Assembly: GCF_013315695.1 (NCBI RefSeq)
Contig: NZ_CP054353.1
From: Escherichia coli
GTDB taxonomy: Bacteria > Pseudomonadota > Gammaproteobacteria > Enterobacterales > Enterobacteriaceae
Direction: 5' to 3' (one strand)
DNA length: 64,000 nt
Below the pieces are notes generated by a model. That model did not search any database. It saw only the letters and a program-made list of their open reading frames with translations, and had not been told where the DNA came from. This document shows, piece by piece, positions 41,372 through 55,408 of the stretch. Position numbers and translations under genes: made by a program. The first letter of the stretch is position 1. Each line of letters opens with the position of its first letter.

Positions 41372-43571
<2,200 letters not shown>

Positions 43572-44840: not shown

Positions 44841-45125
44841 ATGAAACGCAAGATTATTGTCGCTTGCGGAGGCGCGGTTGCGACCTCCACGATGGCGGCG
44901 GAAGAAATTAAAGAGTTGTGTCAGAGTCATAATATTCCTGTTGAATTAATCCAGTGTCGGGTTAATGAAATAGAAACCTATATGGATGGCGTGCATTTGA
45001 TATGCACCACGGCCAAAGTGGATCGTAGTTTTGGCGATATTCCGTTAGTTCACGGCATGCCTTTTGTTTCTGGTGTCGGTATCGAAGCATTACAAAATAA
45101 AATTCTGACTATCTTACAGGGGTGA
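44841..45125 (+). CDS. gatB: Galactitol PTS EIIB
   Basis: 94-aa ORF with active-site Cys near the N-terminus ([11 protein letters not shown]). Confidence 0.9.
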
Positions 45126-45128
45126 CCT

Positions 45129-46484
45129 ATGTTTTCAGAAGTCATGCGTTATATTCTCGACCTCGGCCCTACGGTGATGCTGCCGATTGTCATCATTATT
45201 TTTTCTAAAATATTAGGCATGAAGGCAGGCGATTGCTTTAAAGCGGGTCTGCATATCGGGATTGGCTTTGTTGGCATTGGCCTTGTGATTGGCTTAATGC
45301 TGGATTCCATTGGTCCGGCGGCGAAAGCGATGGCGGAAAATTTCGACCTGAATCTGCATGTGGTCGATGTCGGCTGGCCGGGCTCTTCACCCATGACCTG
45401 GGCGTCGCAAATTGCGCTGGTGGCGATTCCGATTGCGATTCTGGTTAACGTGGCGATGTTACTGACCCGTATGACGCGGGTGGTAAATGTTGATATCTGG
45501 AATATCTGGCATATGACCTTCACCGGCGCGTTGCTGCATCTGGCAACCGGTTCATGGATGATAGGGATGGCGGGTGTGGTAATTCACGCGGCGTTTGTTT
45601 ATAAGCTCGGCGACTGGTTTGCCCGCGATACCCGAAATTTCTTTGAGCTGGAAGGCATTGCCATCCCGCACGGTACGTCGGCGTATATGGGGCCAATTGC
45701 GGTGCTGGTGGATGCTATCATCGAGAAAATCCCAGGCGTTAACCGAATTAAATTTAGTGCCGACGATATTCAGCGCAAATTTGGTCCGTTTGGCGAGCCT
45801 GTCACCGTGGGTTTTGTGATGGGGCTGATTATCGGCATCCTCGCGGGTTACGATGTCAAAGGTGTATTGCAGCTGGCGGTAAAAACGGCGGCGGTTATGC
45901 TGCTGATGCCACGGGTGATTAAACCCATCATGGATGGTTTAACGCCCATCGCTAAGCAGGCCCGTAGTCGTTTACAGGCGAAGTTCGGCGGTCAGGAGTT
46001 CCTGATTGGCCTGGATCCCGCATTACTGCTGGGGCATACGGCGGTGGTATCGGCAAGCCTGATTTTTATCCCGCTCACCATTTTAATTGCTGTTTGTGTG
46101 CCGGGTAATCAGGTGCTGCCGTTTGGCGACCTTGCCACCATCGGCTTCTTTGTGGCGATGGCGGTCGCGGTGCATCGTGGAAATCTGTTCCGCACCTTAA
46201 TCTCGGGTGTCATCATTATGAGCATCACCCTGTGGATCGCGACGCAAACTATTGGTTTGCACACCCAACTGGCGGCTAATGCGGGCGCGTTAAAAGCCGG
46301 GGGTATGGTGGCTTCAATGGATCAGGGCGGTTCTCCCATTACCTGGTTACTGATTCAGGTTTTCTCCCCGCAAAATATTCCCGGTTTCATTATTATCGGC
46401 GCAATTTATCTGACCGGTATTTTCATGACCTGGCGTAGAGCGCGTGGTTTTATTAAACAAGAGAAAGCCGTTCTCGCAGAATAA
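45129..46484 (+). CDS. gatC: Galactitol PTS EIIC permease
   Basis: 451-aa polytopic membrane ORF. Confidence 0.9.
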   Translation: MFSEVMRYILDLGPTVMLPIVIIIFSKILGMKAGDCFKAGLHIGIGFVGIGLVIGLMLDSIGPAAKAMAENFDLNLHVVDVGWPGSSPMTWASQIALVAIPIAILVNVAMLLTRMTRVVNVDIWNIWHMTFTGALLHLATGSWMIGMAGVVIHAAFVYKLGDWFARDTRNFFELEGIAIPHGTSAYMGPIAVLVDAIIEKIPGVNRIKFSADDIQRKFGPFGEPVTVGFVMGLIIGILAGYDVKGVLQLAVKTAAVMLLMPRVIKPIMDGLTPIAKQARSRLQAKFGGQEFLIGLDPALLLGHTAVVSASLIFIPLTILIAVCVPGNQVLPFGDLATIGFFVAMAVAVHRGNLFRTLISGVIIMSITLWIATQTIGLHTQLAANAGALKAGGMVASMDQGGSPITWLLIQVFSPQNIPGFIIIGAIYLTGIFMTWRRARGFIKQEKAVLAE

Positions 46485-46531
46485 TTTTTACCTGAGGGGG
46501 AGGTTATCCCCCTTAACAATCAGGAGTTTTT

Positions 46532-47572
46532 ATGAAATCAGTGGTGAATGATACTGATGGTATCGTGCGCGTAGCAGAAAGCGTCATTCCTGAAATTAAA
46601 CATCAGGATGAGGTGCGGGTAAAAATTGCCAGCTCGGGCTTATGTGGTTCCGATTTACCCAGGATATTTAAAAATGGTGCACATTATTATCCAATAACGT
46701 TAGGCCATGAATTTAGCGGCTATATTGATGCGGTGGGATCCGGTATTGATGATTTACATCCCGGCGATGCGGTTGCCTGTGTGCCGTTATTACCCTGTTT
46801 TACTTGTCCAGAGTGTCTGAAAGGGTTTTATTCCCAGTGCGCAAAATATGATTTTATTGGCTCACGGCGTGATGGTGGATTTGCCGAATATATTGTCGTT
46901 AAGCGAAACAATGTCTTTGCACTACCTGCGGATATGCCTATTGAGGATGGCGCTTTTATTGAACCGATTACCGTTGGCCTGCATGCGTTCCATTTAGCGC
47001 AAGGATGTGAGAATAAAAACGTTATTATTATTGGTGCCGGAACCATTGGCCTGCTGGCAATTCAGTGCGCTGTCGCGCTGGGAGCAAAGAGTGTGACGGC
47101 TATCGACATTAGCTCAGAAAAACTGGCACTGGCAAAATCTTTCGGTGCGATGCAAACATTTAACAGCCGTGAAATGAGCGCGCCGCAAATACAGGGCGTT
47201 TTACGCGAGCTGCGCTTTAATCAGCTTATCCTCGAGACGGCTGGCGTCCCGCAAACCGTCGAACTGGCGGTAGAGATTGCCGGTCCTCATGCCCAACTGG
47301 CGCTGGTGGGCACGTTGCATCAGGATCTGCATTTAACATCGGCAACGTTTGGCAAAATATTGCGTAAAGAGCTGACGGTGATTGGCAGTTGGATGAACTA
47401 CTCCAGCCCTTGGCCGGGGCAGGAGTGGGAAACGGCGAGCCGGTTGCTGACAGAACGTAAGTTAAGCCTGGAGCCATTAATCGCTCACCGTGGAAGCTTT
47501 GAAAGCTTCGCCCAGGCGGTGCGTGACATCGCTCGTAATGCTATGCCGGGCAAAGTGTTGCTCATTCCCTGA
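46532..47572 (+). CDS. gatD: Galactitol-1-phosphate 5-dehydrogenase (zinc-dependent MDR family)
   Basis: 346-aa ORF with zinc-ligand Cys/His and GxGxxG motifs. Confidence 0.9.
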   Translation: MKSVVNDTDGIVRVAESVIPEIKHQDEVRVKIASSGLCGSDLPRIFKNGAHYYPITLGHEFSGYIDAVGSGIDDLHPGDAVACVPLLPCFTCPECLKGFYSQCAKYDFIGSRRDGGFAEYIVVKRNNVFALPADMPIEDGAFIEPITVGLHAFHLAQGCENKNVIIIGAGTIGLLAIQCAVALGAKSVTAIDISSEKLALAKSFGAMQTFNSREMSAPQIQGVLRELRFNQLILETAGVPQTVELAVEIAGPHAQLALVGTLHQDLHLTSATFGKILRKELTVIGSWMNYSSPWPGQEWETASRLLTERKLSLEPLIAHRGSFESFAQAVRDIARNAMPGKVLLIP

Positions 47573-47671
47573 AACCGCGGGCCAGCGTGATGCTGGCCCG
47601 GTATTGTGCAAAACAGATCATTCACCAATGGTCCCCCTTCGTTTACACTAGCCACAATTGAATATGGGTAA

Positions 47672-48451
47672 ATGACGATGAATTCATTCGAGCGAAGGAA
47701 TAAGATCATCCAATTAGTGAATGAACAGGGAACCGTGCTTGTTCAGGATCTGGCGGGAGTATTTGCTGCCTCGGAAGCGACAATCCGTGCCGATTTGCGC
47801 TTTCTCGAACAAAAAGGCGTGGTTACGCGCTTTCATGGCGGTGCGGCGAAAATAATGTCCGGTAATAGTGAAACCGAGACCCAGGAAGTCGGGTTTAAAG
47901 AGCGATTTCAGCTCGCCAGCGCGCCAAAAAACAGAATAGCGCAGGCGGCAGTCAAAATGATCCACGAAGGGATGACCGTTATTCTCGACAGCGGAAGTAC
48001 GACAATGCTTATCGCCGAAGGATTAATGACCGCCAAAAATATCACGGTGATTACCAACAGTCTCCCGGCAGCATTTGCCCTTTCCGAAAATAAAGACATT
48101 ACTCTGGTCGTCTGCGGTGGCACGGTCCGCCATAAAACGCGCTCGATGCATGGCTCCATTGCTGAGCGTTCATTGCAGGATATTAATGCCGATTTAATGT
48201 TTGTCGGTGCTGATGGTATTGATGCGGTTAATGGTATTACGACCTTTAATGAAGGCTATTCGATTAGCGGGGCGATGGTCACAGCCGCAAATAAAGTGAT
48301 TGCCGTTCTCGATTCATCGAAATTTAATCGTCGCGGTTTTAATCAGGTACTGCCAATCGAAAAAATTGACATTATTATTACCGATGATGCTGTGTCTGAG
48401 GTGGATAAACTGGCATTGCAGAAGACACGGGTAAAATTAATTACGGTGTAG
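47672..48451 (+). CDS. gatR: DeoR-family repressor GatR, apparently intact
   Basis: 259-aa uninterrupted ORF with N-terminal HTH and C-terminal sugar-phosphate binding domain. Confidence 0.85.
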   Translation: MTMNSFERRNKIIQLVNEQGTVLVQDLAGVFAASEATIRADLRFLEQKGVVTRFHGGAAKIMSGNSETETQEVGFKERFQLASAPKNRIAQAAVKMIHEGMTVILDSGSTTMLIAEGLMTAKNITVITNSLPAAFALSENKDITLVVCGGTVRHKTRSMHGSIAERSLQDINADLMFVGADGIDAVNGITTFNEGYSISGAMVTAANKVIAVLDSSKFNRRGFNQVLPIEKIDIIITDDAVSEVDKLALQKTRVKLITV

Positions 48452-48462
48452 TATTGTTCTGT

Positions 48463-48496
48463 ATGCCGGATAAGGTGTTTACACCGCATCCGGCAT
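48463..48496. repeat. REP-like palindromic unit between gatR and yegS
   Basis: tgccggataaggtgtttacaccgcatccggca. Confidence 0.45.
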
Positions 48497-48532
48497 TACG
48501 GATTCTCCCTGGTTCAACAGAGAATAGTTTGA

Positions 48533-49432
48533 TTAACGCAATAATGGACAATCTGGTGGTAATCGACAACGCAACGCCGCCGGAAGTATTTCAATATGGA
48601 AGTTTTGCCCACTCAACGGTTCGCCATCAAGATTAAAAGTGATTTCGTGTGGGGCTTGTATATCAAACCACGACGAAGCGCCTTCGATAATATTCGGGTT
48701 ATCTTCGTCAGATTTTAAGGTTGATACGAGAGCCGGAAGAATTTCATCGCCGGTAAAAATGCGCAGTTGCAGCAAGCCATCGTTAATTAACGCGTTCGGG
48801 CACAATTGCTGACCGCCACCGGCCTGACGCCCGTTACCAATACCAATGACCAGGGCGTCACCTTGCCAGTGAAAGTTTTCACCGCGGATTTCACAACGGT
48901 CCGGTTGCAGAGTATCCATGCGCATTAAGCCATGAATGATGTAAGAGACGCCACCCAGCGCGGCTTTTAATTTTTCCGGCGTTTCTGTGGTAATACGCGT
49001 CCCAAATCCGCCTGTCGCCATATTAATAAAACAGGTTTGTTTGTTGACCTGCGCTATATCTATCGCAATGGCGTTACCGGCAATTGCCAGTTTCAGCGCC
49101 TTATCCAGTGCCTCAGGAATCCCTACACTGGTGGCAAAATCATTGGCGGTTCCTAATGGCAAAATTCCCAGCGCGGGTATGTCATCCCCCTCACACTGAA
49201 TCAACGCCGTAGAAACTTCATTAATGGTGCCATCGCCACCACCGGCAATCACCGTTGCGACGCCCAACTTCCGGGCCTCCTCTACATATCGTGCGGCATC
49301 GCCTTTCTCCCAGGTGACCCGCACATGGATCGTCATTCCTTCCTCACGCAACAGCATAATTGCTTCGCGCAGGGGTAGATTGTCAGTACTTTTGCCATTA
49401 AGAATCAGTAAGCTGGCGGGAAATTCTGCCAT
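48533..49432 (-). CDS. yegS: Lipid kinase YegS (diacylglycerol-kinase-like fold)
   Basis: 299-aa ORF with GGDGT motif. Confidence 0.9.
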
Positions 49433-49846
49433 GATCGTATGTGCCTTTATGATTGGTCTGTAGATAGTGTAGAGCAGAAAAGAAAAGGTAGAGTCAGAAC
49501 AGGATGAAAGTCGGAGGATAAAAAGTCAGTTCAAGTATGGAAGATTCAGTGGTTACCACCAGGAGCTTGCAATGGGGACAGCGAATACTAACGGCAGCCA
49601 CCGATAAATTTCAAAAAAGAGCATATACCTAATATTCAACTAAACAGTGGCATCTTCAATATACTATTAAAAATATATTAACCCCCCCATGGGGTTACCC
49701 GGAAGGGCATCCGTGTCTGTAATTCCTACTTATGTAGGAAATGTTGTACAGAACATTTATTATAATCCTATTCAAATATAATAATCATGCCATTATTATA
49801 TTTAAACACCAGAGCGTGTCGTTGGTATTTAATGGGGGAAGGTAAG

Positions 49847-50164
49847 ATGAAAAAGATAGCTGCTATATCATTAATTAGTGTTTTTCTTATGTCTGGTTGT
49901 GCTGTGCATAATGATGAGACAAGTATCGGTAAATTTGGCCTTGCATATAAAAGTAATATTCAGCGTAAACTCGATAACCAATACTACACCGAAGCCGAAG
50001 CTTCTTTAGCCAGGGGCAGAATTTCTGGTGCAGAAAATATAGTAAAAAATGATGCAGCTCATTTCTGTGTTACTCAGGGAAAAAAAATGCAGATAGTTGA
50101 CCTGAAGACAGAAGGTGCAGGATTACATGGCGTCGCTCGTCTGACATTCAAATGTGGAGAGTGA
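49847..50164 (+). CDS. yegR: Lipoprotein YegR
   Basis: ORF 49787..50164; likely start MKKIAAISLISVFLMSGC (lipobox). Confidence 0.75.
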   Translation: MKKIAAISLISVFLMSGCAVHNDETSIGKFGLAYKSNIQRKLDNQYYTEAEASLARGRISGAENIVKNDAAHFCVTQGKKMQIVDLKTEGAGLHGVARLTFKCGE

Positions 50165-50324
50165 GAATATTTTTTGGTAAGCGTCAAATATGCGCGTTCT
50201 GGCTGTGCGTAGCCGGAACCTGTGGGAGCACGATGCCGATAAGTGAAAGGCATCGTGCTATGAAGGAGGATTCTATCGATGTGGTCAATGGAAGATGGTT
50301 ACCAGGATACGACGGCTTATGCAT

Positions 50325-50411
50325 AAAAAATAAGCCCGTGTAAGGGAGATTACACAGGCTAAGGAGGTGGTTCCTGGTACAGCTAGCATTTTATGGGTTA
50401 TGTTTTTCAGC
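50325..50411 (-). ncRNA. cyaR: CyaR (RyeE) small RNA
   Basis: Minus strand reads gctgaaaaacataacccataaaatgctagctgtaccaggaaccacctccttagcctgtgtaatctcccttacacgggcttatttttt, matching the CyaR sequence as I recall it, with its terminator. Confidence 0.85.
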
Positions 50412-50495
50412 GAAACGGATGATAACCTTAATAAATGCAGCTGTATGTGATCGGTTTCTAAGAATTTTCCATCCGGGAAAAATAATCGAAATTAA

Positions 50496-51857
50496 TCACT
50501 TACCGTGGGGGTTACGCGTGGTTTCCCCGGAGAAATTACGCATCAGCAGCGCGTAATTTAGCTCAAGATCCTGCGGGACCGGGATCCACACAGTATAACC
50601 ATCGCCTGGTGCGACCGGCATTGCTTCGCCTTTGGCGTTTTCCATATGCTCAAGGGTAAAGTTAATGTTCCCTTGCGGCGTCATCAGCTCAAGGCTGTCG
50701 CCAACGGAGAATTTATTTTTCACCGCTACCGCCGCGAGGTCGCCCTTGCGCTCACCGGTAAACTCACCAACAAACTGCTGGCGGTCAGAAACTGAATAAC
50801 CGTATTCGTAGTTCTGATAATCGTCGTGAGTATGACGACGCAGGAAACCTTCGGTATAGCCACGATGCGCCAGACCTTCCAGAGTTTCCAGCAGGCTGGT
50901 ATCGAATGGTTTTCCCGCAGCTGCGTCATCGATAGCTTTACGGTAAACCTGCGCGGTGCGTGCGCAATAGTAGAAAGATTTTGTACGACCTTCGATTTTC
51001 AGCGAATGCACGCCCATTTTGGTCAGGCGTTCAACGTGGGCGATAGCGCGCAGATCTTTCGAGTTCATGATGTAAGTGCCGTGCTCATCTTCAAACGCAG
51101 TCATATACTCGCCCGGACGCTGAGCTTCTTCGATCATAAACACTTTGTCGGTTGGCGCGCCGATACCCAGCGTCGGCTCAACATTTTGCACCGGAATCGG
51201 CTCGTACTTATGTACGATGTTGCCAACATCATCTTCTTTCCCTTCCTGGACGTTGTACTCCCAGCGGCAGGCGTTGGTGCAGGTGCCCTGGTTCGGGTCG
51301 CGCTTGTTGATATAGCCAGAGAGCAGGCAGCGACCGGAGTAGGCCATGCACAGCGCGCCGTGAACGAAGATTTCGATCTCCATATCCGGCACCTGATTGC
51401 GGATCTCTTCAATCTCTTCCAGCGACAGCTCGCGAGAGAGGATCACGCGGGTCAGGCCCATTTGCTGCCAGAATTTCACCGTCGCCCAGTTCACGGCGTT
51501 AGCCTGCACCGAGAGGTGGATCGGCATTTCAGGGAAGTGCTCGCGCACCAGCATAATCAGCCCTGGATCGGACATAATCAGCGCATCCGGCCCCATCTCC
51601 ACCACCGGTTTCAGGTCACGGATAAAGGTTTTCAGCTTGGCGTTGTGCGGTGCAATGTTGACCACGACATAAAACTTTTTCCCCAGCGCGTGGGCTTCAT
51701 TGATGCCGAGCTGAAGATTTTCGTGGTTGAATTCGTTGTTGCGCACACGCAGGGAGTAACGTGGCTGGCCCGCATAAACAGCATCTGCGCCATAAGCGAA
51801 AGCGTAACGCATATTTTTCAGCGTTCCCGCCGGGGAAAGGAGTTCCGGTTTAAACAT
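50496..51857 (-). CDS. yegQ: Peptidase U32 family protein YegQ
   Basis: 453-aa ORF; gene order next to cyaR. Confidence 0.85.
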   Translation of the reverse strand: MFKPELLSPAGTLKNMRYAFAYGADAVYAGQPRYSLRVRNNEFNHENLQLGINEAHALGKKFYVVVNIAPHNAKLKTFIRDLKPVVEMGPDALIMSDPGLIMLVREHFPEMPIHLSVQANAVNWATVKFWQQMGLTRVILSRELSLEEIEEIRNQVPDMEIEIFVHGALCMAYSGRCLLSGYINKRDPNQGTCTNACRWEYNVQEGKEDDVGNIVHKYEPIPVQNVEPTLGIGAPTDKVFMIEEAQRPGEYMTAFEDEHGTYIMNSKDLRAIAHVERLTKMGVHSLKIEGRTKSFYYCARTAQVYRKAIDDAAAGKPFDTSLLETLEGLAHRGYTEGFLRRHTHDDYQNYEYGYSVSDRQQFVGEFTGERKGDLAAVAVKNKFSVGDSLELMTPQGNINFTLEHMENAKGEAMPVAPGDGYTVWIPVPQDLELNYALLMRNFSGETTRNPHGK

Positions 51858-51959
51858 AATTCTCTCGTTCTGATGACAGGTCAGATCCGCTTCACCTGAT
51901 GAAGCGGTTAGGGGAGTGCCCCCACTTTAAGGGCGGGCATTGTAGCGCAATCGGCGGGT

Positions 51960-52256
51960 TTAGCTCCAGTGTAAATGTCTGGAGGCGTCCTGGTTTTGGT
52001 TAAGGATACGAATGACGATAATTTCCTCTGGCGATTGCAGGAAATAAATTACGTGGCGTTCAAAAGGAAGAACAAAAATACCTTCGCCTAATTCAGGTCT
52101 GGGCGTACCTATATTATTGTTACTCAGAATCTGGAGAACGTCTGAAAGATGTTCCACATATCTGTCGGCTTGTGGTTCGCCGAAATGGTGATAGCTGTAA
52201 TACCAGATGCCTTCTAAATCCTCATTGGCTTTTGGCATGAGTTTTATAGTACGCAC
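51960..52256 (-). CDS. ParE/RelE-family toxin (type II toxin-antitoxin)
   Basis: 98-aa ORF; start 1 nt after the upstream antitoxin stop (GTG at 52256, or ATG at 52238). Confidence 0.7.
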   Translation of the reverse strand: MRTIKLMPKANEDLEGIWYYSYHHFGEPQADRYVEHLSDVLQILSNNNIGTPRPELGEGIFVLPFERHVIYFLQSPEEIIVIRILNQNQDASRHLHWS

Positions 52257-52257
52257 A

Positions 52258-52509
52258 TTATTTCCTTATCCCTGCTTTCACCTTCCGTAAAAACGCGTCC
52301 TTTTCCCACGGCTGAGCTTCACCACTACTCAACCCTTCAGCGAGCATGTCACGTAACGCTTGCAGGCGAGACTCTGCTTGCTTTTCTCGAAGTAAGCGCA
52401 GCGACTCACGGATCACTTCGCTTTGGGTGCGATAGTCGCCGGATTCAATTAAGGACTCGATAAATTCACGCAACTCATCGCCGAGATCAACCGTCATCGT
52501 TCTGGCCAT
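52258..52509 (-). CDS. ParD-like ribbon-helix-helix antitoxin
   Basis: ORF 52258..52554; likely start MARTMTVDLGDELREFIESL; 83 aa. Confidence 0.7.
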   Translation of the reverse strand: MARTMTVDLGDELREFIESLIESGDYRTQSEVIRESLRLLREKQAESRLQALRDMLAEGLSSGEAQPWEKDAFLRKVKAGIRK

Positions 52510-52762
52510 TTTACACCCGCCTGTAAGTAAAAATCTTACATCAGTGTATTTCATAAACCGGATAGCGTCACGAAAGTATTAGAAGATATTTTGGCATATG
52601 AACATGTTCAGGAAGATAAGTATGGGATGGTAAACAAAGAAAGCACAACGAGTGCTCGTCAGTGCCCACTATTTTAATGGCGGAGGTTAATCTTAATTAT
52701 CAATAACTAAGAGTTGTTTTGATATAAAGCCGGACGCCAACAACCCACGCCCGGCATCGTAA

Positions 52763-53095
52763 TTACGTATTGTCTTTTACCGTCTGGCTTGTGCCATTGG
52801 CTTTAACGGAGGCAATTCCGGTTTCACGAGATTGCGCGGTGGCGTACATCTGGCTGGAGCCGATAATTTGATGATTGGCGGCTTTCAGATTGAAATAGAA
52901 TTTGCCGTTACTTGCCGTTTTTTTCTCATAGCGTTCTTCTTGCGGGCTGTTGCTACGTACCGACGCGATGCCCTTTTCCGCAGAGGCTTTTGAGGTATAC
53001 AGCTCGCTGGTGAGGATAGTCTCACCATTGCCCGCTTTTAGCACAAACCGGAATTGATTATCACTGCTCTTACTGAGTTCAAACCAACCAGCCAT
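52763..53095 (-). CDS. yegP: YegP (DUF1508 tandem-domain protein)
   Basis: ORF 52763..53134; likely start MAGWFELSKSSDNQFRF; two internal repeats; 110 aa. Confidence 0.8.
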   Translation of the reverse strand: MAGWFELSKSSDNQFRFVLKAGNGETILTSELYTSKASAEKGIASVRSNSPQEERYEKKTASNGKFYFNLKAANHQIIGSSQMYATAQSRETGIASVKANGTSQTVKDNT

Positions 53096-53285
53096 AATGA
53101 CTCCTTGATTGAAATTGCGTATCGAAAACAGCATCTAAAAGGACTGTTTGCCGATTAAAGTATGAGCGATTTTCAGGTGCTTGCCAGGGCGGAGAGATAA
53201 TGTCAGTTTGCTGACCATGCGTGGGATAATGTTGCCGGATCTGGTCTGAATGCCATCTCCGGCTAACAAAGTCATGTCGCTAAAA

Positions 53286-54008
53286 CTAAACGATGCGGCA
53301 AGCGTCGGCTTCCCAGCGATAACCGACACCGTAGACGGCGCGGATAAAAGACTGCTCTTCGTCCAGAGCTTCCAGCTTGCGGCGCAGGTTTTTAATGTGG
53401 CTGTCGATGGTGCGGTCGGTTACTACGCGGTAGTCGTCATAAAGATGGTTCAGCAACTGCTCGCGGGAGAACACTTTTCCTGGTTCATGAGAGAGCGTTT
53501 TCAGCAGACGAAATTCCGCAGGCGTCAGGTCAAGCATTTTTCCGCGCCATGAAGCCTGAAAACGACCTTCGTCGATAATCAACGGGCTTTCAGCATCCTG
53601 TTGCTGCAACTCGCGCTGCGGTTTGCAACGGCGCAAAATGGTTTTGACGCGCGCTACCACTTCCCGTGGGCTGTACGGCTTACAGATATAATCATCTGCG
53701 CCAATCTCCAGTCCGAGCAGGCGGTCGATCTCTTCGATTTTTGCTGTCACCATCACGATCGGAATGTCAGAAAAACGACGAATCTCCCGACACAACGTCA
53801 GGCCATCGGTGCCAGGGAGCATCAGATCCAACAGGATCAGATCCGGTGGTGTCTGGCGCACATATGGCAGTACCTGATCGCCGTGGCTGATAAGCGTCGG
53901 CGCATAGCTCGCAGCACGCAGATAATCAATGAGTAACTGTCCCAGCTTCGGTTCATCTTCCACGATCAAAATACGCGGTGTGTTTTCGTCGATTGGTAAC
54001 TCGGTCAT
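53286..54008 (-). CDS. baeR: Response regulator BaeR (OmpR family)
   Basis: 240-aa ORF; receiver plus winged-helix; overlaps baeS stop. Confidence 0.95.
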
Positions 54009-55408
54009 ACTTCTCTCTGTAAATCCCGTTCCAGCGGTAACTCTACTGTAATGCTTACCCCGCCAAAAGGCGAATGGGCAGCAATAATGCGACCATTATG
54101 TGCTTCAACAATGTTCAGGCAAATCGCCAGCCCCAGCCCGGAACCGCCGCTGGCTCGGTTGCGGGAGCCTTCGGTGCGATAAAAACGTTCAAACAATTTT
54201 TGTAGCTGATCGTCACTGACGCCCGGCGCGCTGTCGGCAAAGGTCAGGCGCACCGTTTTGTCGTGCTGCTCGGCAGAGATTTTCAGGCTACCGCCGCTGT
54301 CAGTGTAGCGCAGGCTGTTTTCCAGTAAGTTATTGAATAACTGCATTAAACGGTCGCGATCGCCAAATACGGTAATACTGTCTGGCAGGGAAAATTGCAG
54401 TTTCAGGCCACGGCTGGCGAATCGTTCGCGAAATGCGCCGCCCGCCACTTCCAGCAGTGGGATCAAATCTACCGGTGCTTTTTGATAGGCGAGAGCGCCT
54501 TCATCAGACATCGACAACTGATGGAGATCGTCAACCAGTTTGGTCAGTGTACCGACCTCCGCCTGTAAAGACGCCACCGTCTCCGGCGTGAATTTACGCA
54601 CGCCATCCTGAATAGCTTCCAGTTCGCCGCGCAGTACCGCTAAAGGCGTGCGCAGCTCGTGGGAGATATCGGCCATAAAATCGCGGCGCATCTGTTGGTT
54701 TTTCTCCAGCGTGCTGGCGAGCTGGTTGAAGTCTTGCGCCAGTTTGCCCAATTCATCTTCACTGGTGGGCGTCACGCGAGTAGTGAAATCGCCCGCTGCC
54801 AGTTTGTGTGTACCGTCCACCAGTCGTTTGACCGGAGCCAGCAAACCGCGCGCCAGTGGGAATGTCGCCAGCGCCGCTAACAAGGTAGATAAAGCGACAA
54901 TCAGCCAACTGGTTTGCCTCTGTTGTCTGTCAAAATTGATATCGGTATTGCGGGTCAGTCGTTCAACAGGGGAGGCGATCACCGCACCCACTTCCGCCCC
55001 ATTGACCATAATGGGCCGCCGTGTGCCGTCTGGTGGAATCGGTGCTCGCGGGCCAACCAGCACTTTGTTGTTTTGATCAACCACCCAGAATTGCGTGCGC
55101 CAGCCGTGTGGCGGCATACCGGGGCCGGGCTTATCTTCGTTGTTATCATGCTCCAGCGAACGTAGGATCTGAAATACAAAGCGATCGTTATTACGCAGGA
55201 AGCGCCAGTTCCCGTGCTGGGCGTACTGCTCACCAAGCGCATCGCCGAGCATTTGCAGCCGTTGTTCATTACCATGCTTGATGTAATCAATAAAGCCACG
55301 CTCAAAACTGATACGCACCGCCCAGTGCATACTGATCAGCAAGACAATGCAGGTGGCGAAAATCGCCAGAAACAGTTTGCCGGTAATACCGGGTCGCCAG
55401 AACTTCAT
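54005..55408 (-). CDS. baeS: Sensor histidine kinase BaeS
   Basis: 467-aa ORF; two TM segments, HAMP, H-box (SHELRTPL), ATPase domain. Confidence 0.95.

Follow-up and report, generated by a model that had tools for sequence, protein, structure and literature searches.

In the stretch of Escherichia coli DNA analysed here (64,000 nucleotides, hereafter the window), the interval between yegR and yegQ/trhP holds an intact cyaR gene whose 3' end is a predicted and unoccupied attachment site (attB) for phages of the P2 family, and we are highly confident that the lineage of the window did not go through the event that left the prophage remnant PR-X (ogrK-yegZ) at the same place in K-12. The remnant stands as a feature of the K-12 lineage, supported as such by the distribution of its junction among complete genomes, and the window shows the majority state. 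The features on which this reading rests are collected in Table 1.

Table 1. Features of the cyaR region (positions in the window; an empty strand cell means that no strand was assigned)
Feature	Position	Strand	Basis
yegS (lipid kinase), ancestral immediate neighbour of cyaR	48533..49432	-	ORF list; K-12 annotation; outgroup tblastn
yegR island, ~805 bp, GC 40%; putative ancient P2-like prophage remnant	49520..50324		absence in sister lineages
Putative relic of the P2 P' arm end with a degenerate second att core	49520..49575	-	local alignment score 27; 0/2000 shuffles
yegR, 105-aa predicted lipoprotein (signal sequence MKKIAAISLISVFLMSGC); orphan, convergent with cyaR	49847..50164	+	K-12 b2085 match
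63-aa ORF across the spacer, ATG start; judged spurious	50152..50343	+	mechanical ORF list
Spacer hairpin with 11-bp stem (AGCACGATGCC / GGCATCGTGCT), no T tract	50228..50260		read from sequence
Putative decayed relic of the P2 P arm, adjoining the core	50276..50324	-	local alignment score 30; 0/2000 shuffles reach it
Unoccupied P2-family attB core, 27 bp (AATCTCCCTTACACGGGCTTATTTTTT), predicted	50325..50351	-	exact match to P2 attP core
cyaR (ryeE) sRNA gene, 87 nt	50325..50411	-	Rfam RF00112; K-12 b4438 alignment; fold
CyaR intrinsic terminator hairpin, 11 pairs, loop of 6, then TATTTTTTAT	50333..50360	-	terminator scan and RNA fold
yegQ/trhP, upstream of cyaR	50496..51857	-	ORF list; K-12 and RefSeq annotations

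The cyaR gene and its surroundings

The sRNA gene was recovered on the minus strand both by Rfam and by comparison with K-12, the latter giving the very coordinates of the original prediction. In a scan of 45000..56000, the gathering score (47 bits) is exceeded by one match only, CyaR_RyeE (RF00112), which scores 100.7 bits (E=1.1e-19) at 50328..50413 of the minus strand and covers all model positions (1-85 of 85), and in an alignment to the K-12 reference (MG1655 2160000-2176000, locus L001) the annotated cyaR (2167114..2167200) falls exactly on the interval listed in Table 1 with 100% identity. The gene lies downstream of yegQ/trhP, and RNA folding (z = -3.0) yields both the seed hairpin, with CCUCC in its loop, and the intrinsic terminator. 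The intergenic region of 84 bp between yegQ and cyaR aligns to K-12 with zero mismatches and, because the promoter region (50412..50495) is identical to that of K-12, we infer that CRP-cAMP-dependent expression and Hfq-dependent regulation would be the same as there.

On the other side of cyaR, the stop codon of yegR ends at 50164 and the spacer between the two genes is therefore 50165..50324, i.e. exactly 160 bp, which is the distance that had been estimated. A terminator scan of 49700..50600 found no intrinsic terminator on the plus strand between the yegR stop and cyaR, and read-through from yegR is for that reason possible; speculatively, it could produce an RNA antisense to CyaR in most E. 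coli and not in K-12, since PR-X there separates yegR from cyaR.

Two differences from K-12 were observed further out. The gene gatR (DeoR family, 259 aa) is intact in the window (47672..48451, plus strand) and split by IS3E in K-12. Between yegQ/trhP and yegP lies an insertion of ~780 bp (51949..52728) that K-12 does not have and that carries a parDE-type pair, with the ParE toxin at 51960..52256 and the ParD antitoxin at 52258..52509, both on the minus strand; it is present at a coverage of at least 80% in 1,843 of 5,426 complete E. coli genomes.

An unoccupied attachment site in the cyaR terminator

The last 27 nt of cyaR, which comprise the 3' half-stem of the terminator and the U tail, read AATCTCCCTTACACGGGCTTATTTTTT. 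This is the 27-bp attP core annotated in the P2 record AF063097 (24356-24382), and it is matched exactly, and only once, in the window; it is on this exact match that the assignment as a P2-family attachment site, without an occupant in the window, is based. At the genome level the same position is seen to be in use: in occupied E. coli genomes the BLAST pieces on either side of the site overlap by exactly 27 bp, i.e. P2-type prophages are integrated elsewhere at precisely this point of cyaR with the core duplicated, and O157:H7 Z1836 has a complete P2-like prophage there, with int adjoining yegR. In mechanistic terms, the P2 integrase would recombine the attP core with the identical 27-bp sequence at the cyaR 3' end, and cyaR would stay intact in lysogens because the phage supplies its own copy of the core. 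We take this 3' site of cyaR to be the 'locI' site of P2.

The accessory region of the Z1836 prophage (L003 27337..28287) contains a gene of the reverse-transcriptase family and an adjacent HTH gene, which may represent retron-type defence cargo.

The site does not differ in principle from other documented cases of phage integration at sRNA genes, or at the 3' ends of tRNA and tmRNA genes, in which attB overlaps the end of the terminator and the core rebuilds the structured RNA gene; comparable sites are rybB, with P2-like prophages in E. coli W, B and Crooks, ryeB in Salmonella, and ssrA. The cyaR site itself is also documented. Table 2 of the E. coli W genome paper gives 'cyaR RNA' as a P2 insertion site and states as its content Wphi2 (P2) in W, ogr-D' in K-12 and P2*B in B, with Crooks empty (PMC3032704), and Bobay et al. 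refer to ryeE in E. coli as 'previously known to be targeted by phages' (PMC3603311). The table in the E. coli W paper (PMC3032704) covers, across W, K-12, B and Crooks, the same polymorphism of empty site, remnant and full prophage that we encounter at cyaR, and therewith the polymorphism of empty site and ogr-D' is already published; the window has its common state.

The DNA around the core is itself variable. Over the 151 bp that span it (50255..50405) most genomes are 90-97% identical to the window (3,075 of them in the 90-95% band), as compared to 95-99% over a region of 661 bp, and this higher polymorphism is concentrated at 50305..50316, adjoining the core. In the segment that corresponds to 50313..50337, the flank that follows the core in many E. 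coli (K-12 and locus L002 included) is ATGCATAAGCCC, which has an inverted copy of the core's GGGCTTAT; together with the core this copy forms an 8-bp palindrome around TTTTTTATGC, the version in the window being one of 7 bp (GCCG). Among genera, the bases of the cyaR terminator stem vary (e.g. ACGCAGGC in Citrobacter loci versus ACACGGGC in E. coli), and the att core differs among them for that reason.

The K-12 remnant and its distribution

When the yegR-cyaR interval was aligned with its K-12 counterpart, as the original prediction had proposed, a segment of 630 bp proved to be K-12-only (between L001 7195 and 7826, a gap in the window) and the interval turned out to contain no ogrK-like sequence. 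The segment is the annotated cryptic prophage PR-X, which consists of ogrK and the yegZ pseudogene and shares 95-98% identity with ogr-D in P2 and in related phages; the remnant was reportedly described in 1992 by Barreiro and Haggard-Ljungquist. PR-X occupies the same position in the order yegQ-cyaR-yegR, next to a core identical to that of P2 attP, and the window differs in being without the 630 bp. Searches with the K-12 insert, OgrK, P2 gpD and P2 Int (blastn-short, blastn and tblastn) gave no match in the interval or in the whole 64 kb, with as sole exception 15 nt of the P2 P arm at 50276..50290 (see below). Likewise, the window has no Ogr/Delta zinc finger (PF04606, on which K-12 OgrK scores 77 bits), no gpD fragment and no DNA similarity to the 630-bp insert, so that the absence of ogrK/yegZ, first read from the letters only, holds. 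A weak tblastn match of OgrK at 55030-55122 (E=0.002) was rejected as chance, for it lies out of frame in a long ORF and lacks a CxxC pattern, and another 15-nt match between PR-X and the window, at 41379, is attributed to chance as well.

In K-12 the full core is found at the cyaR side of PR-X and a partial copy of 18-19 nt (TACACGGGCTTATTTTTTT) at the yegR side, from which it follows that a P2-like prophage integrated and later suffered a deletion from the interior of gene D to the interior of the distal core. The inferred order of events would then be that a P2-like phage entered at cyaR in the K-12 lineage and that the whole stretch from gene D to the distal core was subsequently lost, which would have left the 630-bp remnant, while in the lineage of the window the integration simply would not have happened.

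The distribution of the different states was determined with junction-specific queries against the 5,426 complete E. coli genomes. The uninterrupted site, i.e. at least 80% coverage of a 151-bp query across the core, is present in 4,206 genomes (~78%). The K-12 junction (yegZ fragment, partial core, host flank) is present in 357, and the junction cyaR-core-P arm-ogr, all types taken together, in 1,167, which leaves, after subtraction of the K-12 type, about 810 genomes with a P2-type prophage or another remnant. The site as such is thus not specific to K-12, as P2-type arm and ogr adjoin it in these ~810 further genomes, and ~15% of the genomes are now occupied. As a check on the counts, 4,206 plus 357 agrees with the 4,562 genomes that cover the 661-bp query when joined pieces are allowed. 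Among the matches listed for the K-12 junction (60 of the 357), all 60 are laboratory derivatives of K-12 (MG1655, W3110-type, C600, DH1, DH5alpha, J53, NCM3722 and others). A second K-12 marker located 2.4 kb away, the gatR::IS3E junction, is found in 345 genomes, and the closeness of this number to the 357 ogrK-yegZ genomes suggests that the two sets are essentially the same.

The same state of the window could in principle have arisen by loss, if its lineage once carried a remnant of the K-12 type or a full P2-like prophage that was removed cleanly, either through Int/Cox excision or through recombination between the flanking core repeats, both of which would restore a clean site. The excision of P2 is precise, as with tyrosine integrases generally, the ~15% occupancy indicates that turnover at cyaR is real, and the remnant in K-12 is indeed flanked by a full and a partial core with the host flank intact. 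Because of that partial second core and those intact flanks, the case for absence rests on distribution and not on structure alone. The distribution, however, is that of an event confined to the K-12 lineage: the junction is limited to the 357 genomes just described and the uninterrupted state is that of the majority. Moreover, PR-X contains neither int nor cox and therefore cannot excise by itself. Taken with these observations, a loss is improbable, and the missing K-12-specific insertion envisaged in the original prediction is the reading that the distribution supports. The precise excision of an unrelated earlier prophage would leave no trace in this sequence.

The open reading frame across the spacer

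The mechanical ORF list places an ORF of 63 codons over the spacer (Table 1). The assertion that this ORF overlaps CyaR and is not of the Ogr type agrees with our searches, in which it showed no BLASTP similarity to K-12 OgrK at E<=100 and no match in Pfam, NCBIfam or PHROG, where OgrK scores 77 bits on Ogr_Delta (PF04606). That it could be a genuine coding gene that takes the place of ogrK outside K-12 is extremely unlikely: the ATG start and the length of 63 codons speak for it, but it lacks any homologue or family match, begins within yegR in a different frame and extends antisense across the CyaR terminator; in other E. coli a 170-bp indel (50168/50169) interrupts it at codon 6, in K-12 the PR-X insert interrupts it, and among the listed genomes with a match across this region RefSeq annotates no feature there. 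Most likely the ORF is spurious. The spacer also has a mini-ORF of 15 aa behind a strong AAGGAGG, the C-terminus of which differs between the window and K-12.

The yegR island as a possible older P2-like relic

The original prediction took the spacer for plain host DNA. This part of it probably has to be revised, since relics of phage arms and cores appear to place the spacer within the scar of an older P2-like integration. A first indication comes from base composition and from sister lineages. The GC content of yegR is 38.7% and that of the ~805-bp segment that contains yegR and the 160-bp spacer (here called the yegR island) is 40%, against 52.0% for the window, and the island abuts the att core to the base. 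Three Escherichia lineages with an uninterrupted site (a record titled E. coli E69, Escherichia sp. E1V33 and E. whittamii; loci L041, L059 and L091) are without the island: in these, the counterpart of the yegS upstream region (window 49513 downward) begins within ~7 nt of cyaR, and yegS comes next. In the record titled E. coli E69, the yegS region reaches only 88% identity to that of the window. Given the absence of the island in these lineages, with yegS next to cyaR, the ~805 bp are to be considered an insertion.

A second indication comes from the two ends of the island, each of which was compared to P2 by local alignment, with 2000 mononucleotide shuffles for significance (scores in Table 1). 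Within the putative P-arm relic at the cyaR side, 15 nt (CATTGACCACATCGA, at 50276..50290) are identical to the Int arm-site region of P2 and have both the orientation and the side of the core that a P arm would have. The far end reads, in the orientation of cyaR, ...CCATTGCAAGCTCCTGGTGGTAACCACTG-AATCTTCCATACTTGAACTGACTTTTT-ATCCTC, after which the ancestral flank begins, and aligns to the P' end and core of P2; the degenerate second core (49520..49546) agrees with the core of P2 at 19 of 27 positions and the P' relic covers 49547..49575. The island is thus flanked by direct repeats of the att core, one intact (50325..50351) and one degenerate (49520..49546), with a P arm by the one and a P' arm by the other, in the order of a prophage.

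A degraded version of the island in Escherichia sp. MOD1-EC7003 (L098), in which yegR is reduced to an inverted piece of 67 nt, is nearer to P2 than the island of the window at both ends. Its P arm is longer and includes the IHF-site region (score 44, 0/2000 shuffles), and its P' arm comes with a complete core that matches at 20 of 27 positions (score 45, 0/2000 shuffles). It also keeps a segment of 170 bp that is missing from the window and from K-12. This AT-rich segment lies between 50168 and 50169 in some E. coli (L002 1830..1999) and, because MOD1-EC7003 has it as well, appears to be ancestral, so that the window and K-12 seem to have lost it by deletion. The length variant itself had been considered as a shorter P2 remnant and was rejected as such, the indel being located directly after the yegR stop.

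No phage genes were found to accompany these ends: blastn and tblastn detected no similarity to Int, Ogr or gpD within the island. A 'distant' blastn of the spacer against the phage collection returned only records with host flank (Phage TP, which equals the K-12 locus, and vB_EcoM-720R8) and did not pick up the short arm homology. The hairpin in the spacer at 50228..50260 has, relative to the P arm, roughly the position of the ogr terminator of P2, and it was not called as a terminator on either strand in the terminator scan.

The homologues of YegR (family PF27694) are almost all from E. coli/Shigella, and the most distant ones (44-51% identity) stand in unrelated contexts that are IS-rich or ordinary chromosomal and not of P2 type. 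No genuine P2-type phage genome was found to encode YegR: both matches in the phage collection are to records with host flank in them, and the same probably holds for the PHROG match. In view of these flank-derived matches and of the non-P2 contexts of the homologues, there is no independent support for a phage origin of YegR.

To place the island in a wider context, the representative genomes of other species were scanned with a cyaR pattern, which gave 120 Enterobacteriaceae loci (L005-L124). In 63 of the 120, the three island-free Escherichia lineages included, yegS starts at most 150 nt after cyaR (tblastn); a P2-type P arm directly follows cyaR in 18, and in 25 other inserts of 0.15-3.4 kb precede yegS. 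The 3' end of cyaR is, in other words, widely used for insertion. In E. albertii NBRC 107761 (L007, about 4957..8420), the order after cyaR is a well-preserved P2-type P arm, cdtA-cdtB-cdtC, which encode the cytolethal distending toxin (identity confirmed by Pfam), and yegS, and the 3.4-kb segment between cyaR and yegS contains no ogr, D, int or phage structural genes. This is the architecture that we propose for the yegR island (cyaR, P arm, cargo, yegS), with the differences that the cargo is a toxin operon instead of yegR and that the P arm is much better preserved.

The resemblance to the P2 arms might also have the reverse origin, in that phages captured host flank by imprecise excision, or be due to chance, in which case the segment with yegR would be an ordinary insertion of non-phage DNA. 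In favour of this one may cite that no phage gene is left in the island, that homologues of YegR elsewhere lie in IS-rich or ordinary chromosomal surroundings, and that one further 15-nt match of PR-X, the one at 41379, does occur by chance. Capture or chance nevertheless seems unlikely to us, as the same arm sequences directly follow cyaR in Citrobacter, Enterobacter, Buttiauxella and other genera, in some of them with ogr and gpD thereafter and in none with yegR, and are present in the genomes of P2-type phages as well; in addition, the island adjoins the core with no base in between and has arm and core relics at both ends in correct order and orientation, and the copy in MOD1-EC7003 is closer to P2 at either end.

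We therefore favour, as the probable explanation of this sequence evidence, that yegR and the 0.8-kb spacer between cyaR and yegS are a domesticated remnant of an ancient P2-like prophage, and that modern P2 phages enter its old attL. An ancient P2-like phage would have integrated at cyaR in the canonical orientation, and its prophage would have shrunk to 0.8 kb and become fixed in E. coli; PR-X in K-12 and the present prophages would then be later, nested integrations. In the literature that could be searched we found no paper that states this nested origin, which is probably new, as a modest evolutionary footnote.

Implications

At cyaR, K-12 is the exception, and the genes ogrK and yegZ are consequently not to be expected in other E. 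coli. The absence of the remnant from the window matters little in itself, as it concerns a documented polymorphism at a documented phage site. The older history of the site would add somewhat more. If the yegR island is indeed of P2-like origin, yegR would be an orphan lipoprotein gene that was delivered by a phage, which would provide an origin for this uncharacterised gene, and a copy of an Int arm-site would have survived at 35 nt from the core, where it might affect integration or excision. For the study of prophage domestication and of orphan genes the locus would be of modest value as a dated and bounded case of the repeated use of an sRNA gene as att site, represented by the putative yegR relic of E. 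coli, the cdtABC remnant of E. albertii, the PR-X of K-12 and the live prophages of ~15% of the genomes.
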